Part shown: positions 4,605 through 17,494 of the stretch, one piece after another | How positions within the stretch are numbered: the stretch's first letter is position 1 | Layout of the letters: each line of letters starts with the position of its first letter | Source: a virus | Taxonomy: Duplodnaviria; Heunggongvirae; Uroviricota; Caudoviricetes | Reading direction: 5' to 3' (one strand) | DNA length: 45,879 bases | IMG/VR virus record: IMGVR_UViG_2541047916_000008 | Position numbers and translations under genes: made by a program | Notes under the pieces: generated by a model | The model's input: the letters and a program-made list of their open reading frames with translations, nothing else | Databases searched by the model: none | Told to the model about the DNA's origin: nothing

Positions 4605-5029
4605 CAAAGCAGTGGCTGTTGTGGTGGGGTTGTCACTCAGGCGTATGGTCAACCTGACAATCCGGTGTCCTCAACGGGGAAAGAGTAACCCCGCCATACT
4701 TACCGCCGCGCCATTTCGCGGATTACCACAACGCTGAGAGCACTTAGCCAGTTACGGCACCACACTTTGTCGCGGTTCCATAAATGCCCTCATCGTTGCA
4801 CCCTGGTCTCTTCCCAGGCGTCAAACCGGATCGCCACGCTGGTTAGGCGTCTTATCAGCATCCTCATTGACTTGCACATTCCGGCTACCTGGTTTGTTTG
4901 CCCGAGCAAGGAGTGGATTGTCCCCTTTAACGTCCCCAGACCGCTAACGACGCATGTGCCATACGCCGTGTTACAACCAAATTTTGTTAGTACCTTGTTT
5001 GTAGGTCTGGAGAGAAAGATAAAATGAAG

Positions 5030-5067
5030 TTGCGCATTATGCAAGTGTTTTATTGCGAGATAAGCAA
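5030..5067. promoter_or_regulatory. OL-like operator pair (two 15-bp TTGCG-N6-GCAA sites) with presumed leftward promoter
   Basis: ttgcgcattatgcaa (5030-5044) and ttgcgagataagcaa (5053-5067), centres about 23 bp apart, just downstream of the repressor gene terminator. Confidence 0.5.
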
Positions 5068-5079
5068 TTTGGTGGGTAA

Positions 5080-5101
5080 TGAAAAGCCACCTTCTGGTGG
5101 C
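5080..5101 (-). terminator. Terminator of repressor gene
   Basis: gccacc-ttct-ggtggc hairpin; A-run on plus strand gives a U-run after the stem on the minus transcript; about 25 nt past the cI-like stop. Confidence 0.55.
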
Positions 5102-5123
5102 TAATTGATGTTGAGGTAGGGGG

Positions 5124-5816
5124 TTAATTGTGTCGCTTAAGGGTCTGTGACTGACTGATTAAGACCTTTCCAAAGACCATAAACCGGTGTTCGTTTTCGC
5201 TGGTAATTCCCCATTCGCGGTAAATCTGATTATCAGAAATTACCAGCAGTTTATCAGGTATCATTTGCAGTCGTTTGACGTAAATTTTATCATCAAAACC
5301 AAATACATATATACCATCCCCATCAAACTGATTGATACTGATATCAACGAAGATGAGATCTCCTGGCTCAATGGTTGGACACATACTGTCCCCACGAACG
5401 TTGATAACTTTAATGTGATTTGCTGGTCGTCCACCAAACATCGATACAGCATTATCAGTTCTGTATTCAATGGCATGAATCACATCAATGACATCACCGC
5501 CCTGGATAAGGCCATTTCCCGCACTGGCACTGACATCCAGCATTTCAATACGGAATACATCCTTCACCTGCGCAACATCCTCACTAATACTGTTTTTACA
5601 TACAGTATTACTTTTGAGGTCTGAGGTAAAGAGATCAGCAATATCAACACCTAAGCTCCTGGCAATATTACTCAGGGCTTGTTCAGTGAATTGTTTCTGC
5701 TTACCTGTTTCGAGGCGCGAGATATTCGCCGCATCCACTCCTATTGCTTCAGCGAGATCGGCGATTTTCATGTTCTTCGCCTGGCGAAGTTGTCTGACTC
5801 GATTTCCTATGTTCAT
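5124..5816 (-). CDS. CI-like prophage repressor (HTH_XRE N-terminal domain plus S24 LexA-like autopeptidase C-terminal domain)
   Basis: Track ORF; HTH motif IADLAEAIGVDAANISRLETG; C-terminal G-DSM...K motif of S24 peptidases; divergent from cro-like gene. Confidence 0.8.
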   Translation of the reverse strand: MNIGNRVRQLRQAKNMKIADLAEAIGVDAANISRLETGKQKQFTEQALSNIARSLGVDIADLFTSDLKSNTVCKNSISEDVAQVKDVFRIEMLDVSASAGNGLIQGGDVIDVIHAIEYRTDNAVSMFGGRPANHIKVINVRGDSMCPTIEPGDLIFVDISINQFDGDGIYVFGFDDKIYVKRLQMIPDKLLVISDNQIYREWGITSENEHRFMVFGKVLISQSQTLKRHN

Positions 5817-6174: not shown

Positions 6175-6718
6175 GCATCATTGGAAAGTGGAAAAACAAC
6201 CTGAGTGGTACGTGAAAGCTGTCAGAAAAACTATCGCGGCATTGCCTGGGGGTTACGCTGAAGCTGCTGACTGGCTGGATGTAACAGAGAACGCTTTATT
6301 CAACCGCCTTCGTGCAGATGGCGATCAGATTTTCCCGCTGGGATGGGCAATGGTTTTACAGCGCGCGGCTGGCACTCACTACATTGCGGATGCTGTCGCA
6401 CAGTCTGCTGGTGGGGTGTTCGTATCGCTTCCTGAAATTGAGGAAGTAGAGAACGCCGATATAAACCAGCGCCTGCTGGAAGTCATCGAACAGATCGGGA
6501 ATTACTCAAAGCAGATTCGTTCGGCAATCGAAGATGGGGTCGTGGAGCCACACGAGCAGACAGCAATTAATGATGAGTTGTATCTGTCAATTTCGAAGCT
6601 CCAGGAGCATGCAGCACTGGTCTACAAAATCTTCTGCGCTCCAGAAAAGAGTGACGCCCGCGAGTGTGCAGCTCCGGGCGTCGTGGCGTTTTGTGTCTGT
6701 GGAGAAACTAACGCATGA
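6167..6718 (+). CDS. CII-like phage regulatory protein (CP76-type family), tentative
   Basis: Track ORF immediately after cro-like gene; size (about 180 aa) and position fit enterobacterial CII/CP76-family proteins; family assignment from memory. Confidence 0.4.
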   Translation: MGKHHWKVEKQPEWYVKAVRKTIAALPGGYAEAADWLDVTENALFNRLRADGDQIFPLGWAMVLQRAAGTHYIADAVAQSAGGVFVSLPEIEEVENADINQRLLEVIEQIGNYSKQIRSAIEDGVVEPHEQTAINDELYLSISKLQEHAALVYKIFCAPEKSDARECAAPGVVAFCVCGETNA

Positions 6719-6863
6719 ACAGTTTAACGGCAAATAACCGTTTGTCGCAACAGCTGGTGGTCAGTGTCGCTGAACACCTGTTGTTACGGTATGAATGCAG
6801 ATTACCAAATCACCTGGCTGTAAGTAACCACAGAGAACTTTACCTGACTGTGGGGGGCGAGTT

Positions 6864-7043
6864 GTGCAGGAACTTAACCGCTGGTTTCGTGACGGAAGAG
6901 GGCTTTATGTCCATGTTATTCGTTGGGAGCCAGAAACACAGCGCGTTATCTATCTTCGCAAAGACTACCCGCATGAGTGCTTTAGTCCTTTGTGGAAATT
7001 CAGGCATGATTTTGTTGAGTGTGAAGGACCACCAGCACATTGA
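6864..7043 (+). CDS. Small hypothetical ORF (59 aa, GTG start) not in the 60-aa track
   Basis: Own translation of the frame offset from the track ORF: VQELNRWFRDGRGLYVHVIRWEPETQRVIYLRKDYPHECFSPLWKFRHDFVECEGPPAH; G-rich RBS-like run upstream; terminator about 90 bp downstream. Confidence 0.3.
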   Translation: MQELNRWFRDGRGLYVHVIRWEPETQRVIYLRKDYPHECFSPLWKFRHDFVECEGPPAH

Positions 7044-7128
7044 TTCTGCCATTCCGGGACGTTACACTGTTCAGGCACCTTATAAAGCGGGTGCCGGGCG
7101 TGGAAACCCGGAATTCACCAAAGCGCAC

Positions 7129-7151
7129 AACCGCGCTCTTGCGGTTTTTTT
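7129..7151 (+). terminator. Rho-independent terminator inside the apparent N-terminal extension of the Rha ORF
   Basis: aaccgc-gctctt-gcggtt hairpin followed by T7. Confidence 0.55.
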
Positions 7152-7320
7152 GTGTAATGAGCAGCATTACGCCCAAATTATGGTGGGGCGTGCAGGGCCA
7201 ACTTCGGTTGGGCCGGGTTCTTTGGTGACCGGTATTTCCACCCCTGTACGTCTCACCACCAATAAGGTCGTGGAAAGCCTTGGTGGTGAGTTATTAAAAA
7301 TCACCAAAGAGGCTGCCATC

Positions 7321-7866
7321 ATGGCTACGATCCCAACCCTCACTCAACCTGAAATTGCCATCGTTGATGGTCAGGCTGTTACTTCATCCCTGGCTGTTGC
7401 CAACTTCTTCTCCAAACGTCATGACGATGTACTGAAAAAGATCCGCACGCTTGAATGCTCTGCATCATTCACTGCCCGCAATTTTTCGGTGAGTGATTAC
7501 ACCGATTGCACAGGCCGCAAACTACCTTGCTATCAAATAACCCGCGACGGCTTTGCGTTTCTTGCTATGGGGTTCACGGGTAAACGTGCTGCCCAGTTCA
7601 AAGAGGCATACATCAATGCCTTTAACCAGATGGAGAAACAGCTTTCAAATCCCTCTGTACTGAGCGACGTTGCACATAACGCCAGCGTTCTCTATTCCTA
7701 CATTTCATCAATTCATCAGGTCTGGCTGCAGCAGCTTTATCCTATGTTGGCAAAAGCCGAATCTCCGCTGGCTGTTAGCTTGTATGACTATATTAATGAT
7801 GCTTCGGCACTGGCCTGCCTCATAAATTTGTCGCTGAACCCTTCAGAGGTAAGGGGGCGCAAATGA
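7321..7866 (+). CDS. Rha-family phage regulatory protein
   Basis: Track ORF 6715..7866 trimmed to Met at 7321 (AGAGG RBS); N-terminal Phage_pRha-like segment (VDGQAVTSSLAVANFFSKRHDDVLKKIR). Confidence 0.6.
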   Translation: MATIPTLTQPEIAIVDGQAVTSSLAVANFFSKRHDDVLKKIRTLECSASFTARNFSVSDYTDCTGRKLPCYQITRDGFAFLAMGFTGKRAAQFKEAYINAFNQMEKQLSNPSVLSDVAHNASVLYSYISSIHQVWLQQLYPMLAKAESPLAVSLYDYINDASALACLINLSLNPSEVRGRK

Positions 7867-8087: not shown

Positions 8088-8902
8088 GTATGGAGCTGAT
8101 GGTTAAAGCGATGAAAATTCGAGTGGGTAATCCATTGCGAAAACTGGTTCTGATCAAGCTGGCTGATAACGCCAGCGATCAGGGTGAGTGCTGGCCCAGC
8201 TACCAGCATATTGCTGACCAGTGCGAGATTAGCAAACGTTCTGTGATGAATCATATTGCGGCTCTTTGTGATTCCGGACTGGTAAAAAAAGTCACCCGGA
8301 AAGGTGAAAAAGGTAACTCAAGTAATATCTATCTCCTTCATCTTGATGGTGCAGGAGATTCACTAGGGGGTAGTGCAAATAATTCACTATCTGGTGCAGC
8401 AAATTCACCAGGTAGTGCAGGAGTTGCACCAGGGGGTGGTGCAGGAGATTCACCCAGAACCAGTCACTCTTTTGAACCAGTCAAAGAACCAGTCAATGAA
8501 CCAATAGCTGTTGGTGCATCTGCTGATGAGTCTGTGCGAGTTCGTTCAAACCGACCGGAATACTCTCCGGAGTTTGAGCAGGCATGGCTGGCATACCCCA
8601 AACGTGCTGGTGGCAATTCAAAATCTGCAGCCTTCAAAGCCTGGAAAGCCCGTTTGAATGAGGGGGTAAACCCCGAAACCATGCTGGAAGGTGTGAAACG
8701 CTATGCGGGCTGGGTATCTGCGATGGGTAACAGCGGCACACAATTTGTGAAACAGGCTGTCACGTTCTTTGGTCCGGATCGTCATTTCGAAGAATCCTGG
8801 GAAGTTCCTGCGGTATCTGCAGCCAGACGTGAGGATCCGTACTTCAAAGCCAGTTACGACAACGTGGACTACAGCCAGATCCCGGCAGGATTCAGGGGGT
8901 GA
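8084..8902 (+). CDS. Replication initiator (O-like; N-terminal winged-helix/HTH, Gly/Ser-rich linker)
   Basis: Track ORF 8045..8902 trimmed to ATG overlapping upstream stop; HTH-like segment YQHIADQCEISKRSVMNHIAAL; iteron-like DNA repeats embedded in the linker-coding part. Confidence 0.5.
   Translation: MSMELMVKAMKIRVGNPLRKLVLIKLADNASDQGECWPSYQHIADQCEISKRSVMNHIAALCDSGLVKKVTRKGEKGNSSNIYLLHLDGAGDSLGGSANNSLSGAANSPGSAGVAPGGGAGDSPRTSHSFEPVKEPVNEPIAVGASADESVRVRSNRPEYSPEFEQAWLAYPKRAGGNSKSAAFKAWKARLNEGVNPETMLEGVKRYAGWVSAMGNSGTQFVKQAVTFFGPDRHFEESWEVPAVSAARREDPYFKASYDNVDYSQIPAGFRG
8348..8510. repeat. Iteron-like direct repeats (putative ori) inside the replication initiator gene
   Basis: Five copies of GGT(G/A)GTGCA(G/A)GAGATTCAC-like units at about 8348, 8368, 8392, 8411, 8436, then three to four GAACCAGTCA units at 8456-8507. 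Confidence 0.45.
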
Positions 8903-12581: not shown

Positions 12582-12598
12582 TTTTGTGGAGAACGTTG

Positions 12599-12964
12599 AT
12601 GCGTGATATTCAAATGGTTCTTGAACGTTGGGGGGCATGGGTGGCAAATAATCACGAGGATGTCACCTGGTCGTCTATTGCTGCAGGATTTAAAGGACTA
12701 ATCCCTTCAAAAGTAAAATCCCGCCCGCAATGTTGTGACGATGATGCGATGATCATTTGTGGGTGCATGGCTCGCCTGAAAAAGAACAACAGCGATTTGC
12801 ACGATTTATTAGTGGATTATTATGTAGGTGGTATGACGTTTATGGCGCTTGCCCGTAAACATGGGCGTTCTGATTGCTGGGTTGGGCGTTTATTGCAAAA
12901 GGCTGAAGGTGTAGTTGATGGCATGTTAATGATGTTAGAAATTGAGCTAGAGATGGATCGTTAG
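12599..12964 (+). CDS. Late-gene antiterminator Q (QuuD-like)
   Basis: Track ORF 12584..12964 trimmed to ATG ([14 protein letters not shown]); near-identical in recollection to DLP12 QuuD-type antiterminators. Confidence 0.75.
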
Positions 12965-13048: not shown

Positions 13049-13495
13049 TTAAGGTTTTAATTCATCAAGACGTTGTTGGATAGTGTTTTTGCTTGCGTTG
13101 TCTGTTATAGCCATTTGTTGTACTTGCCCCATTGCCATTTGAGTTTCCATCCACATATCGGCCCACACTTTTGTATCGTTATTAACTTGAGCGATAGTAA
13201 ATCTGACTTTTGATACCGGGGTTGTTGAATAGGCATTGCCGATTAACATTTGTCCAAAAACAGCAGACCCGCCTTCCAGTTCTTTACCACATATAACACT
13301 GCTGTTATCAGCGTTGTAAATTATCAACCCTCTACTATTGCAGTAATTCACAAGGGCATCTTTGACTTTATCTTTTGTCGTATTTTGATAAACCCCCTCA
13401 GGTTTTCCTGATTGAGTTTTTTTTATCAATGGTACGGAAGAAGTACAACCTGAAATGATAGTTGCGCTAAGTAATAGTACAGTCATTTTATTCAT
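13049..13495 (-). CDS. Lipoprotein of unknown function (moron, AT-rich, opposite strand to late operon)
   Basis: Track ORF; signal peptide with lipobox LLSATIISGC; locally AT-rich; sits between terminator-like hairpins. Confidence 0.5.
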   Translation of the reverse strand: MNKMTVLLLSATIISGCTSSVPLIKKTQSGKPEGVYQNTTKDKVKDALVNYCNSRGLIIYNADNSSVICGKELEGGSAVFGQMLIGNAYSTTPVSKVRFTIAQVNNDTKVWADMWMETQMAMGQVQQMAITDNASKNTIQQRLDELKP

Positions 13496-14119: not shown

Positions 14120-15172
14120 ATGAAAAATACTGTAAAAATAAACAGTGTTGATTTAATCAACGCTGATTGCCTGCATTTTATTCAGTCCCTGCCTGATGAT
14201 TCCATTGACCTGATTGTTACCGATCCGCCTTACTTCAAGGTGAAACCCAACGGCTGGGACAATCAGTGGAAAGGGGACGAAGATTACCTTAAGTGGCTGG
14301 ACCACTGTCTGGCCCAGTTCTGGCGGGTGTTGAAACCTGCCGGAAGCCTTTACCTGTTCTGTGGGCATCGCCTGGCATCTGATATTGAGATCATGATGCG
14401 TGAACGTTTCAACGTGCTTAACCATATCATCTGGGCGAAGCCGTCCGGACGTTGGAATGGGTGTAATAAAGAAAGTCTGCGCGCATATTTTCCTGCCACA
14501 GAGCGCGTTCTGTTTGCTGAACATTACCAGGGGCCATATCGCGGCAAAAGTGACGGCTATGCGGCAAAAGAAAGGGAACTCAAACAGCACATAATGGCAC
14601 CGCTGATATCGTATTTCAGGGATGCTCGTGCCGAACTGGGTATAACGGCAAAACAGATTGCCGAAGCCACTGGTAAGAAAAATATGGTTTCCCACTGGTT
14701 TGGTGCCAGTCAGTGGCAGTTGCCGAATGAGGCTGACTACCGGAAGTTGCAGGCACTGTTTTCCCGTATAGCGGCAGAGAAGTTTCAGGAAAAACAACTG
14801 GAACAACCACACCACCAGCTGGTGGCATCTTATGATTCACTGAATCGCAAATATTATGAATTGCTGGATGAGTTTAAAACTCTCCGGCGCTATTTCTCCG
14901 TATCAGTTTCCGTGCCTTATACCGACGTCTGGATGCATAAACCCGTTCAGTTCTACCCGGGGAAACATCCGTGTGAGAAACCGGCGGATATGCTCAGGCA
15001 AATAATCAATGCCAGTAGTCGACCAGGTGATCTGGTTGCTGATTTTTTTATGGGCTCCGGTTCCACAATAAAAGCAGCAATGGCGCTGGGGCGTCGGGCC
15101 TTAGGTGTTGAGCTTGAGTCAGAGCGGTTTAACCAGACAGTGAAAGAGATAAACGAGCTGGTGGGGAAATAA
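14120..15172 (+). CDS. DNA methyltransferase, beta-class N6A/N4C type (DPPY motif IV N-terminal, FxGSG motif I C-terminal); no adjacent restriction gene
   Basis: Track ORF; [10 protein letters not shown] near N-terminus and DFFMGSGST near C-terminus. Confidence 0.7.
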
Positions 15173-15239
15173 TCTGGTGGCCACGTCAGGTGGCCTTTTT
15201 ATTTCCATTACACAGCACCCGCATCTGCGAGGTGGGGTT

Positions 15240-15455
15240 ATGAAATCCATGGATAAGTTAACAACGGGTGTCGCCTATGGCACCTCAGCAGGTAGTGCCG
15301 GGTACTGGTTTTTACAGTTGCTCGATAAAGTCACGCCCTCACAGTGGGCGGCAATAGGTGTGCTGGGTAGTCTGGTATTTGGCTTGCTGACGTATCTGAC
15401 AAACCTTTATTTCAAGATTAAAGAAGACAAGCGTAAGGCTGCACGGGGAGAGTAA
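15240..15455 (+). CDS. Phage-21-type class II holin (pinholin S21-like) with dual-start motif MKSM
   Basis: Track ORF 15177..15455 trimmed to Met at 15240 (GAGGTGGGG RBS); 71 aa; close match in recollection to S21 ([14 protein letters not shown]...[12 protein letters not shown]...[19 protein letters not shown]). Confidence 0.7.
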
Positions 15456-15459
15456 TTCA

Positions 15460-15810
15460 ATGACTCAAAACTATGAACTGATTGTGAAAGGGATCCGCAA
15501 TTTTGAGAATAAAGTTACGGTAACTGTAGCGTTACGGGACAAAAAACGCTTTGACGGTGAAATTTTTGACCTGGACATCTCGCTGGACCGTGTTGAAGGT
15601 GCCGCGCTGGAGTTTTATGAGGCAGCAGCCAGAAGGAGCATCAGACAGGTCTTCCTGGATGTTGCTGCCGGGTTATGTGAAGGGGATGAGCAGTCGCCGG
15701 AAAAGCGCCCCGTAATTTTAGATGCGCAGAATGTGTGGATAACCTACAAAGGAAAGCTACCAGGAAGAATTACTGGTTCTCTGAAGACTCCTCCGGAATC
15801 ACAACCTTAA
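15460..15810 (+). CDS. Hypothetical soluble acidic protein (116 aa) inserted between holin and endolysin
   Basis: Track ORF; RBS GAGAG; 4 bp after holin stop and 63 bp before endolysin start; no TM segment; no family recognised. Confidence 0.45.
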   Translation: MTQNYELIVKGIRNFENKVTVTVALRDKKRFDGEIFDLDISLDRVEGAALEFYEAAARRSIRQVFLDVAAGLCEGDEQSPEKRPVILDAQNVWITYKGKLPGRITGSLKTPPESQP

Positions 15811-15873
15811 GTCACTGACCGGAACAGATAAACCTGTCCGTGGGCAGAAACCGATAAATCCTGATAAATATCC

Positions 15874-16407
15874 ATGAACGCAAAAATCAGATACGGCCTG
15901 TCGGCTGCCGTTCTGGCGCTGATTGCTGCAGGCTCGTCTGCTCCTCAAATACTTGACCAGTTTCTGGATGAAAAAGAGGGTAACCACACTACGGCATACC
16001 GCGATGGTTCCGGTATATGGACCATCTGTCGTGGTGCCACAATGGTGGATGGTAAGCCCGTCATACCGGGAATGAAGCTGTCGAAGGAAAAATGCGACCA
16101 GGTTAACGCTATTGAACGTGATAAGGCGCTGGCATGGGTGGAGCGCAATATTAAAGTACCACTGACCGAACCACAGAAAGCGGGTATAGCGTCATTTTGT
16201 CCCTATAACATTGGCCCCGGTAAGTGTTTCCCGTCGACGTTTTATAAGCGGCTGAATGCCGGTGATCGTAAGAGTGCATGCGAGGCGATTCGCTGGTGGA
16301 TAAAAGATGGTGGGCGCGATTGCCGCATACGTTCAAATAACTGCTATGGACAGGTTATTCGTCGTGACCAGGAAAGCGCATTAGCCTGTTGGGGGATAGA
16401 TCAGTGA
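15874..16407 (+). CDS. SAR endolysin (GH24 T4-lysozyme-like with N-terminal signal-anchor-release segment)
   Basis: Track ORF; N-terminal hydrophobic [17 protein letters not shown]; catalytic E...D...T spacing ([16 protein letters not shown]). Confidence 0.75.
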
Positions 16408-16871
16408 GCAGAGTTGCCGCGATTATTTATGCTCTGGTTATCTGCATCATCGTCTGCCTGTCGTGGGCGGTCAATCATTACCGTGATAACGCCATCGCCT
16501 ACAAAGAACAGCGTGATAAAAAAGTCAGTGAGCTGAAGCAGGCGACCGCCACCATTACTGACATGCAGCAACGCCAGCGTGCTGCTGATGTACTCGATGC
16601 TAAATACACGAAGGAGTTGGCTGATGCGAAAGCTGAAAATGATGCTCTTCGGCGCAAGCTTGATAATGGTGGTCGGGTGCTCGTCAAAGGAAAATGCTCT
16701 GTGCCATCCTCAGCCGAAACCTCCAGCGCCTCCGGCATGGGCAATGATGCCACCGTCGAACTCTCTCCAGTTGCTGGACGAAACGTTCTCGGTATCCGGG
16801 ACGGAATCATCAGAGACCAGACAGCACTGAGAACGCTTCAGGAATATATCAGGACGCAATGCCTTCGATGA
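16404..16871 (+). CDS. Rz-like i-spanin
   Basis: Track ORF 16389..16871; GTG at 16404 overlaps endolysin stop; N-terminal TM segment then coiled-coil-like region. Confidence 0.6.
16624..16830 (+). CDS. Rz1-like o-spanin lipoprotein embedded in Rz in the +1 frame
   Basis: Track ORF 16579..16830 trimmed to Met with AAGGAG RBS; lipobox MVVGC; Pro-rich mature region. Confidence 0.55.
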
Positions 16872-17044
16872 TAGCGATAATTTTACTCATCATCCTTCAC
16901 ATCTGGCTCTGTAGACAGGGTGGTGATCACTTCTGGAGTGAATCCAGATTAAACATCTCATTGCTGATGCTTGAAGTTGAGCATCTGGCGCGCGGTAAGG
17001 GGCTGCGTTGAAATAAGAGCCAGTCATTACAAATACCAGGATTT

Positions 17045-17070
17045 AGCCTCGTATTCGCGGGGCTTTTTAT
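17045..17070 (+). terminator. Hairpin/T-run terminator downstream of lysis genes
   Basis: 7-bp stem agcctcg...cgggggct followed by ttttat. Confidence 0.4.
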
Positions 17071-17494
17071 TGCCATTACAAAAGCCACTCCCTACAGAGT
17101 GGCTTTGATAATGGCTTATACCCTACACGGGATAACTTAACTGATATCCCTTTTAACGGATAAAGGTATTCAAGCCTGACACATCATGCGCTGTATCGTC
17201 GCCGTATTCCCGTATTAACAGAGACCGTAGCCCGACGGGGAACTCCTTCTGCGAGAGTGTGCGGGAATAATCAAAAACGATGCACACCGGGTTTTTACCG
17301 CGTTTATGGTTCGCGGGTTTGTCCCTCATGCTCGCCAGTCCTGTGCGGGGGTGGAAGAAACAGGATACTCACACAGATTCTTGTGGGCACGATGCTATTC
17401 CTTTCTGGATTATCCCGATGCCATTCATGCAAGGCGCTGTATCAGACGTTCGTCATGGCTGTCAGGCTGACGGGTCCTCCCGGTGGGGTGGCCT

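Follow-up and report, generated by a model that had tools for sequence, protein, structure and literature searches.

A DUF1327/YdfR-family gene between the pinholin and SAR endolysin genes of a lambdoid lysis cassette, and its possible function

Known lysis cassettes and the gene order of the window

Two described arrangements of lysis genes come closest to the locus analysed here. The first is the cassette of phage 21 and DLP12 (S21-R21-Rz/Rz1; essD-rrrD); in its DLP12-type layout the lysozyme gene adjoins or overlaps the holin gene, and a 216-nt holin query covers both. The Qin cryptic prophage of E. coli K-12 instead shows the order essQ-ydfR-rrrQ-rzpQ/rzoQ, in which 4 nt separate the holin stop from the start of ydfR (b1555, P76160), whose own stop overlaps the rrrQ start. 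YdfR belongs to the Pfam family PF07041 (DUF1327), a name found in one paper, in passing, and a single study with functional data on ydfR was found (PMC13232886).

The stretch of DNA analysed here, 45,879 nucleotides of a tailed phage (IMG/VR record IMGVR_UViG_2541047916_000008; hereafter the window), shows the Qin gene order, and the whole region matches the phages PhiR40_1 and PhiR55_1 at 100% identity. Its lysis genes form a single late-operon block 2.3 kb downstream of Q (12584-12964) and, like all features located below, lie on the + strand. The ORF positions and the cassette type given by an earlier sequence-only reading were confirmed. The block begins with an S21-type pinholin of 71 aa (15240..15455; PF04971 'P21 holin S', E 2e-35; holin families phrog_9876/phrog_20), which is 94% identical to K-12 EssQ, has a basic C-terminus and carries dual start codons (MKSM, with M1 at 15240 and M4 at 15249). 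It is followed by the ydfR-family ORF of 116 aa (15460-15810; PF07041, E 2.4e-43) and by a SAR endolysin of 177 aa (15874..16407; PF00959, E 2.2e-24; 94% identical to K-12 RrrQ, likewise of 177 aa) with a Gly/Ala/Ser-rich N-terminal segment predicted to be the SAR segment and the triad E35, D44 and T50. The GTG start of the Rz i-spanin (16404..16871; PF03245, E 9e-29; phrog_13), placed according to the PhiR40_1 annotation, overlaps the endolysin stop. Rz1, an o-spanin lipoprotein of 68 aa with lipobox VVG/C and a proline-rich mature part, is embedded in the +1 frame inside Rz (16624..16830), is preceded by the Shine-Dalgarno sequence AAGGAG and matches the rzoQ-in-rzpQ arrangement. The window shares with the phage-21-type cassette the dual-start class II pinholin, the lysozyme domain with a predicted SAR segment and E-D-T triad, and the embedded Rz1; in place of the adjoining or overlapping holin and endolysin genes that also define this type, it has an interval of 418 nt (15456-15873), in which a 351-nt gene and the 63 nt behind it separate the two.

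The block is flanked by hairpins on both sides. A terminator-like GC hairpin with T-run is situated at 15179..15205 (GGCCACGTCAGGTGGCC TTTTTATTTC; the hairpin part, 15179-15195, is GGCCACGTCAGGTGGCC and is followed by TTTTT), between the stop of a DNA methyltransferase gene (15172) and the holin start. A second one, found by sequence scan at 17045..17074, ends the lysis block. Within the cassette itself neither promoter-like nor terminator-like sites were found, and an Rfam scan gave no match. The Q-modified polymerase presumably reads through the first hairpin, and the ydfR-family gene would then be transcribed together with the pinholin, SAR endolysin and spanin genes on a Q-antiterminated late transcript. 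The sequence-only reading had let the cassette begin at 15177, from where a GTG-extended holin of 92 aa can be read; since this extension runs through the terminator-like hairpin, the longer form was rejected and the holin start assigned to 15240.

The 116-aa protein and its family

The inserted ORF had been left unrecognised by the sequence-only reading. A profile search assigns it to DUF1327 with 146.7 bits (cut-off 25), residues 1-112 aligning to profile positions 1-92 of 93, and identical copies are named 'YdfR family protein' in RefSeq. Gene, family and position are thus already known from Pfam, RefSeq and K-12. The description of the product as soluble, mildly acidic and tightly packed behind the holin gene was borne out: the ATG follows the holin stop after 4 nt, with the Shine-Dalgarno sequence GGGGAGAG 7 nt upstream, the pI is 5.5, the highest 19-residue Kyte-Doolittle mean is 0.7, and no signal peptide, membrane or other hydrophobic segment was found in the 116 residues. 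Judged by these properties, the protein should stay in the cytoplasm.

The ORF and the DNA behind it can be divided into four parts. The N-terminal domain (codons 1-74; 15460..15681), of which 72 aa are the sole part conserved over the entire DUF1327 family, is acidic (pI 5.1) and 82% identical and 96% similar to residues 1-74 of K-12 YdfR; Y53-E54 is invariant in an alignment of 21 diverse members. An AF2 model predicts a three-stranded sheet and a helix (strands 5-14, 18-27 and 34-43, helix 50-72; beta-beta-beta-alpha) with pLDDT 66-84. Behind it lies a conserved tail module of approximately 40 aa (codons 75-112; 15682..15795; CEGDEQSPEKRPVILDAQNVWITYKGKLPGRITGSLKTPP), which is modelled with pLDDT below 50 and was also found behind an unrelated N-terminus in another protein (P0153). 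It is missing from K-12 YdfR, a protein of 103 aa that continues past residue 74 with an unrelated C-terminal segment, whereas the 116-aa protein carries the SPEKRP...KTPP tail. Then follows a variable slot (15796..15848), recognised by comparison with other phages: in the window it holds four further codons (ESQP), the stop (15808-15810) and unique filler, and in other phages in-frame modules of 0.4-0.9 kb, resulting in ORFs of 176-329 aa. The right-hand border of the slot is an AT-rich element of 25 nt, AACCGATAAATCCTGATAAATATCC (15849..15873), which directly precedes the endolysin ATG, holds no Shine-Dalgarno match and, in a blastn comparison with six other cassette forms, is 93-100% identical in five; forms such as L180, L207 and L208 have a different sequence in front of the endolysin ATG. 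The protein consists of two modules, the N-domain and the conserved tail, with a slot behind them that sister phages fill by in-frame modules. The 63-nt spacer, made up in part by this element, distinguishes the window from the overlapping ydfR and rrrQ of K-12.

On the evidence of related loci, the ORF is a genuine, probably translated gene, far beyond chance. Its reading frame is conserved over 203 related IMG/VR loci. In 196 of these, the gap between the holin stop and its start is 4 nt (in five more it is 6-12 bases, and in two the holin was not found), and wherever a locus reaches far enough to reveal the order, the endolysin gene lies downstream of the ORF. The N-domain evolves with dN/dS 0.25 at a saturated synonymous divergence (dS approximately 1.3), the tail with dN/dS 0.45 at a dS of only 0.17. 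The forms of 114 and 116 aa are the commonest, together 150 of 204 ORFs with the window copy counted in, a number that leans to short forms because the loci were fetched with three 116-aa queries.

The insert is also ordinary in its occurrence among E. coli prophage cassettes. DNA similar to ydfR is present in 4349 of 5426 complete E. coli genomes (approximately 80%), where 8617 ydfR-like places stand against 16913 S21-type holin places, so that the split layout is as common as the adjacent essD/rrrD layout of the DLP12 type. The statement that pinholin and endolysin genes are normally adjacent therefore holds for about half of the S21-type loci only. The order holin-ydfR-lysozyme was found in 101 deposited phage genomes, and many Stx1a and Stx2c phages carry a gene of the family. 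The range of the family is narrow, with 88 representatives at E<=1e-3 among 1.84 billion proteins and, among 185,579 species genomes, occurrence in Escherichia and Shigella plus two MAGs only. As a sequence feature the insert changes nothing; its interest lies in its function.

Distant family members occupy another place. Salmonella phage ES18 gp24 and vB_SosS_Oslo gp23 are late-operon products too, but their genes stand outside the lysis cassette, flanked by the tail genes M and L, and in L003 the gene of a DUF1327 protein lies between tape-measure and M-like genes. Moreover, other phage lineages conserve proteins of 72-76 aa that consist of the N-domain only. Since distant homologues sit among tail genes, the DUF1327 domain is not specific to lysis.

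Possible functions of the insert

No function emerged from database searches with the 116-aa protein. The five PHROG matches are all of 'unknown function' and none is an annotated antiholin or lysis regulator, NCBIfam gave no match, and homology to a known lysis accessory protein was thus found in neither collection. PADLOC gave no match at E<=1 for the 116-aa and 176-aa forms, a profile of the family alignment had 0 hits at E<=10 among all PDB chains, and hence none to a phage modulator of RNase E or the degradosome with a solved structure such as phiKZ Dip, and no significant match came from the structure-based search. The C-terminal modules of the longer forms matched only unknown-function families when compared with Pfam, PHROGs and the PDB; a Pcc1 match was dismissed as chance-level, and a single-sequence AF2 model of the 287-aa form reached pLDDT 48.

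The experimental link to RNase E comes from one study of a homologue, the 103-aa K-12 protein with its different C-terminus (Gopel et al. 2026, PMC13232886). In that study, a two-hybrid screen baited with RNase G yielded YdfR(1-72) three times, the full-length protein gave a two-hybrid signal with Rne1-597 alone, and Strep-YdfR co-purified Rne1-598-FLAG together with DNase-resistant nucleic acid; the co-purification could be bridged by RNA. Overproduction of YdfR was non-toxic and changed few transcripts (PMC13232886). EHEC with a combined deficiency in RNase E and RNase G showed delayed lysis and a lower yield of Stx2 phage (PMC8443680), which makes a phage protein acting on these enzymes plausible.

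The N-domain shares 82% identity with those 72 residues of K-12 YdfR that bind the catalytic N-terminal half of RNase E, as well as RNase G, and co-purify RNA. We therefore propose that the 116-aa protein may have the same binding and, at a late stage of infection, tune or redirect what RNase E/G does to transcripts of phage or host. We regard such a late accessory acting on RNase E/G as a reasonable working assumption, put forward tentatively. Its role would be that of a late-expressed, moron-like accessory on host RNA metabolism rather than a part of the envelope-breaking machinery. Among the three roles suggested by the sequence-only reading, lysis regulator, late-expressed moron and anti-defence or defence factor, the moron-like one fits best, as distant homologues lie in tail modules and the ES18 gene is annotated as 'possible moron'. 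If the RNase E link of K-12 YdfR holds in lytic growth, host RNA decay would be tied to late expression in lambdoid and Stx phages.

A more far-reaching version, which we consider rather speculative, sees the DUF1327 N-domain as a phage 'RNase E/G handle' that would capture the catalytic half of RNase E or G and that temperate enterobacterial phages would place in their late operons, beside the pinholin gene in lambdoid and Stx phages of Escherichia and among tail genes in ES18-like phages of Salmonella, with the tail and the exchangeable modules choosing the RNAs that are protected or destroyed. If true, no RNA-decay modulator would have been described before it for the late development of lambdoid phages, and it could influence how stable late mRNAs are, when lysis occurs and how much Shiga toxin or how many virions are produced. 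Experiments may take advantage of the 72-aa core, the separate tail, the variable slot and the tail-module homologues in Salmonella phages.

Other functions have to be weighed against an action on RNase E/G. The protein might be a cytoplasmic regulator of lysis timing that binds the S21 pinholin from the cytoplasmic side, at its basic C-terminal tail for instance, and delays or sharpens triggering in the way of P1 LydB or of T4 RIII, a small antiholin cofactor. The constant place 4 nt behind the holin gene, always followed by the endolysin, is in agreement with such a role, as is the pairing of an acidic N-domain with a basic holin C-terminus; furthermore, the holin allele and the 5' half of the gene vary together whereas the tail follows the endolysin module, and deletion of ydfR from K-12 gave a hit in a CPRG screen for envelope integrity. 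However, linkage at 4-nt spacing would by itself yield the co-variation with the holin, and the kan cassette may have caused the CPRG phenotype through polarity on the downstream lysozyme gene rrrQ. In addition, about half of the S21-type cassettes work without ydfR, the distant family members in tail modules have no holin near, and similarity to annotated antiholin or regulator families is missing among the PHROGs. Hence, of the lysis-regulator role suggested by the sequence-only reading the positional argument stands, no other support was found for it, and we consider such a function unlikely.

The same low likelihood is given to a moron for host takeover or anti-defence that has nothing to do with RNase E; its N-domain would bind another host or defence protein as an inhibitor or adaptor, and the variable C-terminal modules would diversify the targets. 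The location at module junctions, seen at two different places of late operons, the very narrow range, the strong mosaicism with modular in-frame C-terminal extensions, and the pairing with a convergent gene of approximately 95-104 aa in ES18-like phages all suit such a moron. Nevertheless, neither PADLOC nor structural comparison gave a significant match, late expression would be an odd timing for counter-defence, and the sole reported experimental partner is RNase E. No promoter-like site was found upstream of the ydfR-family gene, which is therefore probably silent in the prophage, and this counts against a role in lysogen defence. Given this and the PADLOC result, the defence factor suggested by the sequence-only reading finds no support.

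Finally, it is very improbable that the 116-aa form is a functionless decaying remnant or recombination linker, a truncated leftover of the 268-329-aa genes retained only for its place between two conserved recombination boundaries: the window ORF does stop four codons past the point where longer forms run on in frame, the tail diverges as recently exchanged DNA would, and many frameshifted variants exist in databases, but the purifying selection on the N-domain at saturated synonymous divergence, the prevalence of the short forms even with the lean of that count, the conserved stand-alone N-domain proteins and the retained good Shine-Dalgarno sequence all speak against it.

Comparison with small phage proteins of similar setting

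ES18 gp24 is a distant relative of the 116-aa protein, with 30.7 bits to the Pfam DUF1327 profile (cut-off 25) and 25% identity over 65 residues. It consists of 86 aa and is essentially the N-domain alone. While gp24 is paired with the convergent gp25 (phrog_10490), neither a gp25-like partner nor a second DUF1327 copy was found elsewhere in the window.

P1 LydB, encoded directly after the holin gene lydA, and T4 RIII are cytoplasmic holin antagonists or cofactors. They resemble the 116-aa protein in being small and soluble and in being encoded beside a holin gene, but share no detectable similarity with it, its PHROG matches all being families of unknown function.

With regard to the proposed action on RNase E/G, T4 Srd offers a functional analogy only, as a small cytoplasmic protein of a phage for which contact with the catalytic half of RNase E is reported. 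According to the citation of Qi et al. (2015) in PMC13232886, Srd binds RNase E in its N-terminal half and promotes the decay of host mRNA. However, Srd is made early by a virulent phage; the ydfR-family gene of the window belongs to the late genes of temperate lambdoid phages.

The lysis cassette and its surroundings

The sequence-only reading had described the cassette as a phage-21-type unit of pinholin, SAR endolysin and Rz/Rz1, and the domain matches, all on the plus strand, confirm this identity. The 71-aa S21-type pinholin (15240-15455) has an MKSM start and matches PF04971 ('Bacteriophage P21 holin S', E 2e-35). Position 15177, formerly taken as the left edge, was rejected as holin start because the GTG-extended ORF passes through a terminator-like hairpin at 15179-15195. 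A similar hairpin at 17045-17064 flanks the lysis block on the other side, and no promoter-like or terminator-like site was found within the block. As had been read from the sequence, the 116-aa ORF starts 4 bases past the holin stop at 15460 with its own ribosome-binding site (GGGGAGAG, 7 nt upstream of the ATG). A 63-nt spacer separates it from the 177-aa lysozyme (15874-16407, PF00959), which carries Glu35, Asp44 and Thr50 as read from its sequence and has an N-terminus that looks like a signal-anchor-release (SAR) segment. No Shine-Dalgarno match was found for the endolysin start; directly 5' of its ATG lies a 25-nt element, AT-rich and containing a GATAAAT repeat (AACCGATAAATCCTGATAAATATCC, 15849-15873, +), and five of the six other cassette forms aligned by blastn retain it at 93-100% identity. 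The loci L180, L207 and L208 are among the forms with a different sequence at this place. Rz (PF03245) starts at GTG 16404 as annotated in PhiR40_1, overlapping the endolysin stop, and Rz1 (16624-16830) is embedded in its +1 frame with a lipobox (VVG|C) and an AAGGAG Shine-Dalgarno sequence. Furthermore, a 50-aa ORF with hydrophobic N-terminus (16859-17011, +) begins just within the 3' end of Rz and terminates ahead of the hairpin at 17045; it is hypothetical in the PhiR40_1 annotation, has no Pfam match and could be a small membrane protein co-expressed with the lysis genes.

The lysis block is situated 2.3 kb downstream of antiterminator Q (12584-12964, PF06530). Between them lies a gene for a 350-aa N6/N4 DNA methyltransferase (14120-15172, +, PF01555), an inserted segment of which holds a weak HTH match; late expression is expected from this position. 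Just downstream of Q, the opposite strand bears a 148-aa ORF (13049-13495, -) without Pfam match, directly preceded by the best promoter-like site of the region (13514-13485, -, 10/12); this ORF looks like an independently transcribed moron at the cargo position of Stx phages. Outside this region, Rfam models detected two adjoining RNAs, isrK (7075-7151, +, 67 bits) and C4 antisense RNA (7176-7263, +, 83.6 bits), within or just upstream of an Ash/Rha-family ORF (6715-7866, PF10554 and PF09669). Together they form a P1/P7-type antisense immunity module, here in a lambdoid prophage and directed at an antirepressor-like gene. At its left end, the window encodes a YafO-family type II toxin (1-435, +, PF13957, E 1.9e-21), where the PhiR40_1 annotation has a YafM/YafO pair.

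Family, conservation and modular structure of the 116-aa protein

The gene regarded as unknown in the sequence-only reading belongs to the DUF1327 family, with 146.7 bits against the Pfam model (cut-off 25). Its product also has matches in five PHROG families, none with an assigned function. The Escherichia phages PhiR40_1 and PhiR55_1 carry the 1695-bp region with 100% identity and mEp460 with 98.7%; several E. coli chromosomes likewise have it at 100%, and there RefSeq names the product 'YdfR family protein'. Family and arrangement were already known, also from the Qin prophage of K-12; the insert is not a new gene, nor is its presence unusual. The range of the family is very narrow, comprising 343 clusters among 5.8 billion proteins searched and 88 representatives at E<=0.001 among 1.84 billion. 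In the phage collection searched, the cassette DNA is matched by 569 records and a ydfR relative is encoded in 101, all of them Escherichia, Stx or 'Enterobacteria' phages including H-19B and BP-4795. Among 185,579 species, each represented by one genome, the Escherichia-type ydfR occurs only in E. coli, E. ruysiae, E. albertii, Shigella and two MAGs. The latter, Firmicutes assigned to Veillonella parvula (L214) and Bacillota (L216), encode N-domains with 74-82% identity to that of E. coli, most likely on mis-binned Escherichia prophage contigs.

Three family members served as queries to fetch 203 IMG/VR loci, in which the layout was followed. In 196 of them, 7 bases (stop plus 4 nt) separate the last aligned holin residue from ydfR; five others have 6-12 bases, and in the remaining two the holin was not found. 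In every locus of sufficient length, ydfR is upstream of the endolysin. Pairwise Nei-Gojobori estimates for 103 distinct sequences gave a dN/dS of 0.25 at a mean dS of about 1.3 for the N-domain (codons 1-74), which is hence old and under purifying selection. For the tail (codons 75-112), dN/dS is 0.45 and mean dS 0.17, so this DNA was shared between phages much more recently. The fixed position and the selection mark ydfR as a real gene.

This division is also seen in the protein. AlphaFold2, using a 33-sequence alignment, predicted antiparallel strands (5-14, 18-27, 34-43) and a helix (50-72) for the N-domain with pLDDT 66-84, and residues 73-116 remained below 50; a 287-aa relative modelled without alignment showed the same N-domain fold. 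An exhaustive search found stand-alone 71-76-aa proteins consisting of the N-domain only, in which, initiator Met apart, only Y53 and E54 at the helix start are invariant. The tail SPEKRPVILDAQNVWITYKGKLPGRITGSLKTPP forms a module of its own: it hardly varies even where the N-domains share only ~60% DNA identity, and it also occurs in P0153 behind an unrelated N-terminus.

All ydfR forms are colinear to codon 112, and colinearity resumes at the AT-rich element in five of six forms compared (blastn); the slot in between ranges from 53 nt in the window to >1 kb. Among 204 ORFs (203 loci and the window copy), 92 have 116 aa, 58 have 114, 22 have 268, 12 have 176, five have 183, four have 211, and two each have 296 and 329, the other seven having 110, 148, 162, 213 or 260 aa. 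The window protein ends after four codons of slot sequence and, having just the N-domain and the tail, represents the minimal form. For the additional modules of the longer ORFs, Pfam and PDB gave no match, and the PHROGs that they hit all lack an assigned function. When alleles are followed across the cassette, ydfR tracks the holin in its 5' half and the endolysin module in its tail, which places a recombination junction inside ydfR.

Moreover, the domain is not tied to lysis, since homologues exist among tail genes. DUF1327 proteins are encoded between tail genes M and L in the Salmonella phages ES18 (gp24, annotated 'possible moron') and vB_SosS_Oslo, and between the tape-measure and an M-like gene in the SRA contig L003. 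Wherever the short DUF1327 gene occurs in such ES18-like surroundings, the next gene is convergent, encodes ~95-104 aa and has no assigned function (phrog_10490 or phrog_25324), as in L005 (ES18, 4962-5514), L006, L003 (446-992) and L004 (93-649). The pair therefore looks like a two-gene cassette that was inserted into the tail region; its second member has no counterpart in the window.

Possible functions

The profile and structure searches proposed earlier revealed the family but no function, as the window protein matched nothing in PDB, NCBIfam or PADLOC, and Foldseek against viral models returned nothing at E<=0.001. Being mildly acidic (pI 5.5) and devoid of a hydrophobic segment, it should stay in the cytoplasm. 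In the only experimental study, on K-12 YdfR, RNase G used as bait for bacterial two-hybrid screening recovered residues 1-72 three times, signals were obtained with RNase E constructs that include the catalytic half, and Strep-YdfR co-purified Rne(1-598), an association that RNA could have bridged, and DNase-resistant nucleic acid; overproduction was not toxic and changed few transcripts, and the authors likened such binders to T4 Srd and RapZ (Gopel et al., RNA Biology 2026, PMC13232886). Residues 1-74 are 82% identical between K-12 YdfR and the window protein, the remainder being unrelated, and because this stretch covers the 72 interacting residues, the window protein might engage RNase E/G as well. 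In EHEC, combined deficiency of RNase E and RNase G delayed lysis and lowered the Stx2-phage yield (PMC8443680). The reading we tentatively favour, judging from the homologue, is that the window protein would be a late-expressed cytoplasmic accessory protein engaging RNase E/G and RNA. This RNase E lead is now testable.

P1 LydB and T4 RIII are cytoplasmic holin antagonists or cofactors, and a comparable regulation of the pinholin would fit the fixed position of ydfR beside the holin and its co-variation with the holin allele. Nevertheless, such a role appears unlikely: half of the cassettes lack ydfR, homologues reside in tail modules, similarity to annotated lysis regulators is absent, and linkage alone accounts for the co-variation. 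Also in favour of this role, the Keio ydfR deletion scored in the CPRG screen for envelope integrity (supplementary files 2 and 5 of PMC3879167), but ydfR is directly upstream of the SAR lysozyme gene rrrQ, which makes read-through from the kan cassette a plausible artefact, and the score may reflect a polar effect on this lysozyme. An anti-defence or other host-takeover moron would agree with a family that is narrow in range, mosaic and equipped with exchangeable C-terminal modules, but direct support is missing and we consider it improbable. That the gene is a non-functional remnant is very doubtful, given that the N-domain is under purifying selection and that short forms predominate.

Comparison with the Qin and DLP12 cassettes

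Pinholin and endolysin genes had been assumed to be normally adjacent. In 5426 complete E. coli genomes, ydfR-like genes were found at 8617 places (4349 genomes) and S21-type holins at 16913 places (5166 genomes), so at least half of the S21-type cassettes carry ydfR; adjacency holds for the remaining ones, whose layout is of the DLP12 type, in which essD abuts rrrD. The window has the same gene order as K-12 Qin, i.e. essQ, ydfR, rrrQ and rzpQ with embedded rzoQ, and there, too, ydfR starts 4 nt past the holin stop. EssQ and RrrQ each share 94% identity with their counterparts in the window, the holin and the endolysin. The two cassettes differ before the endolysin, where the ydfR stop overlaps the rrrQ start in Qin, whereas the AT-rich element precedes the endolysin ATG in the window.
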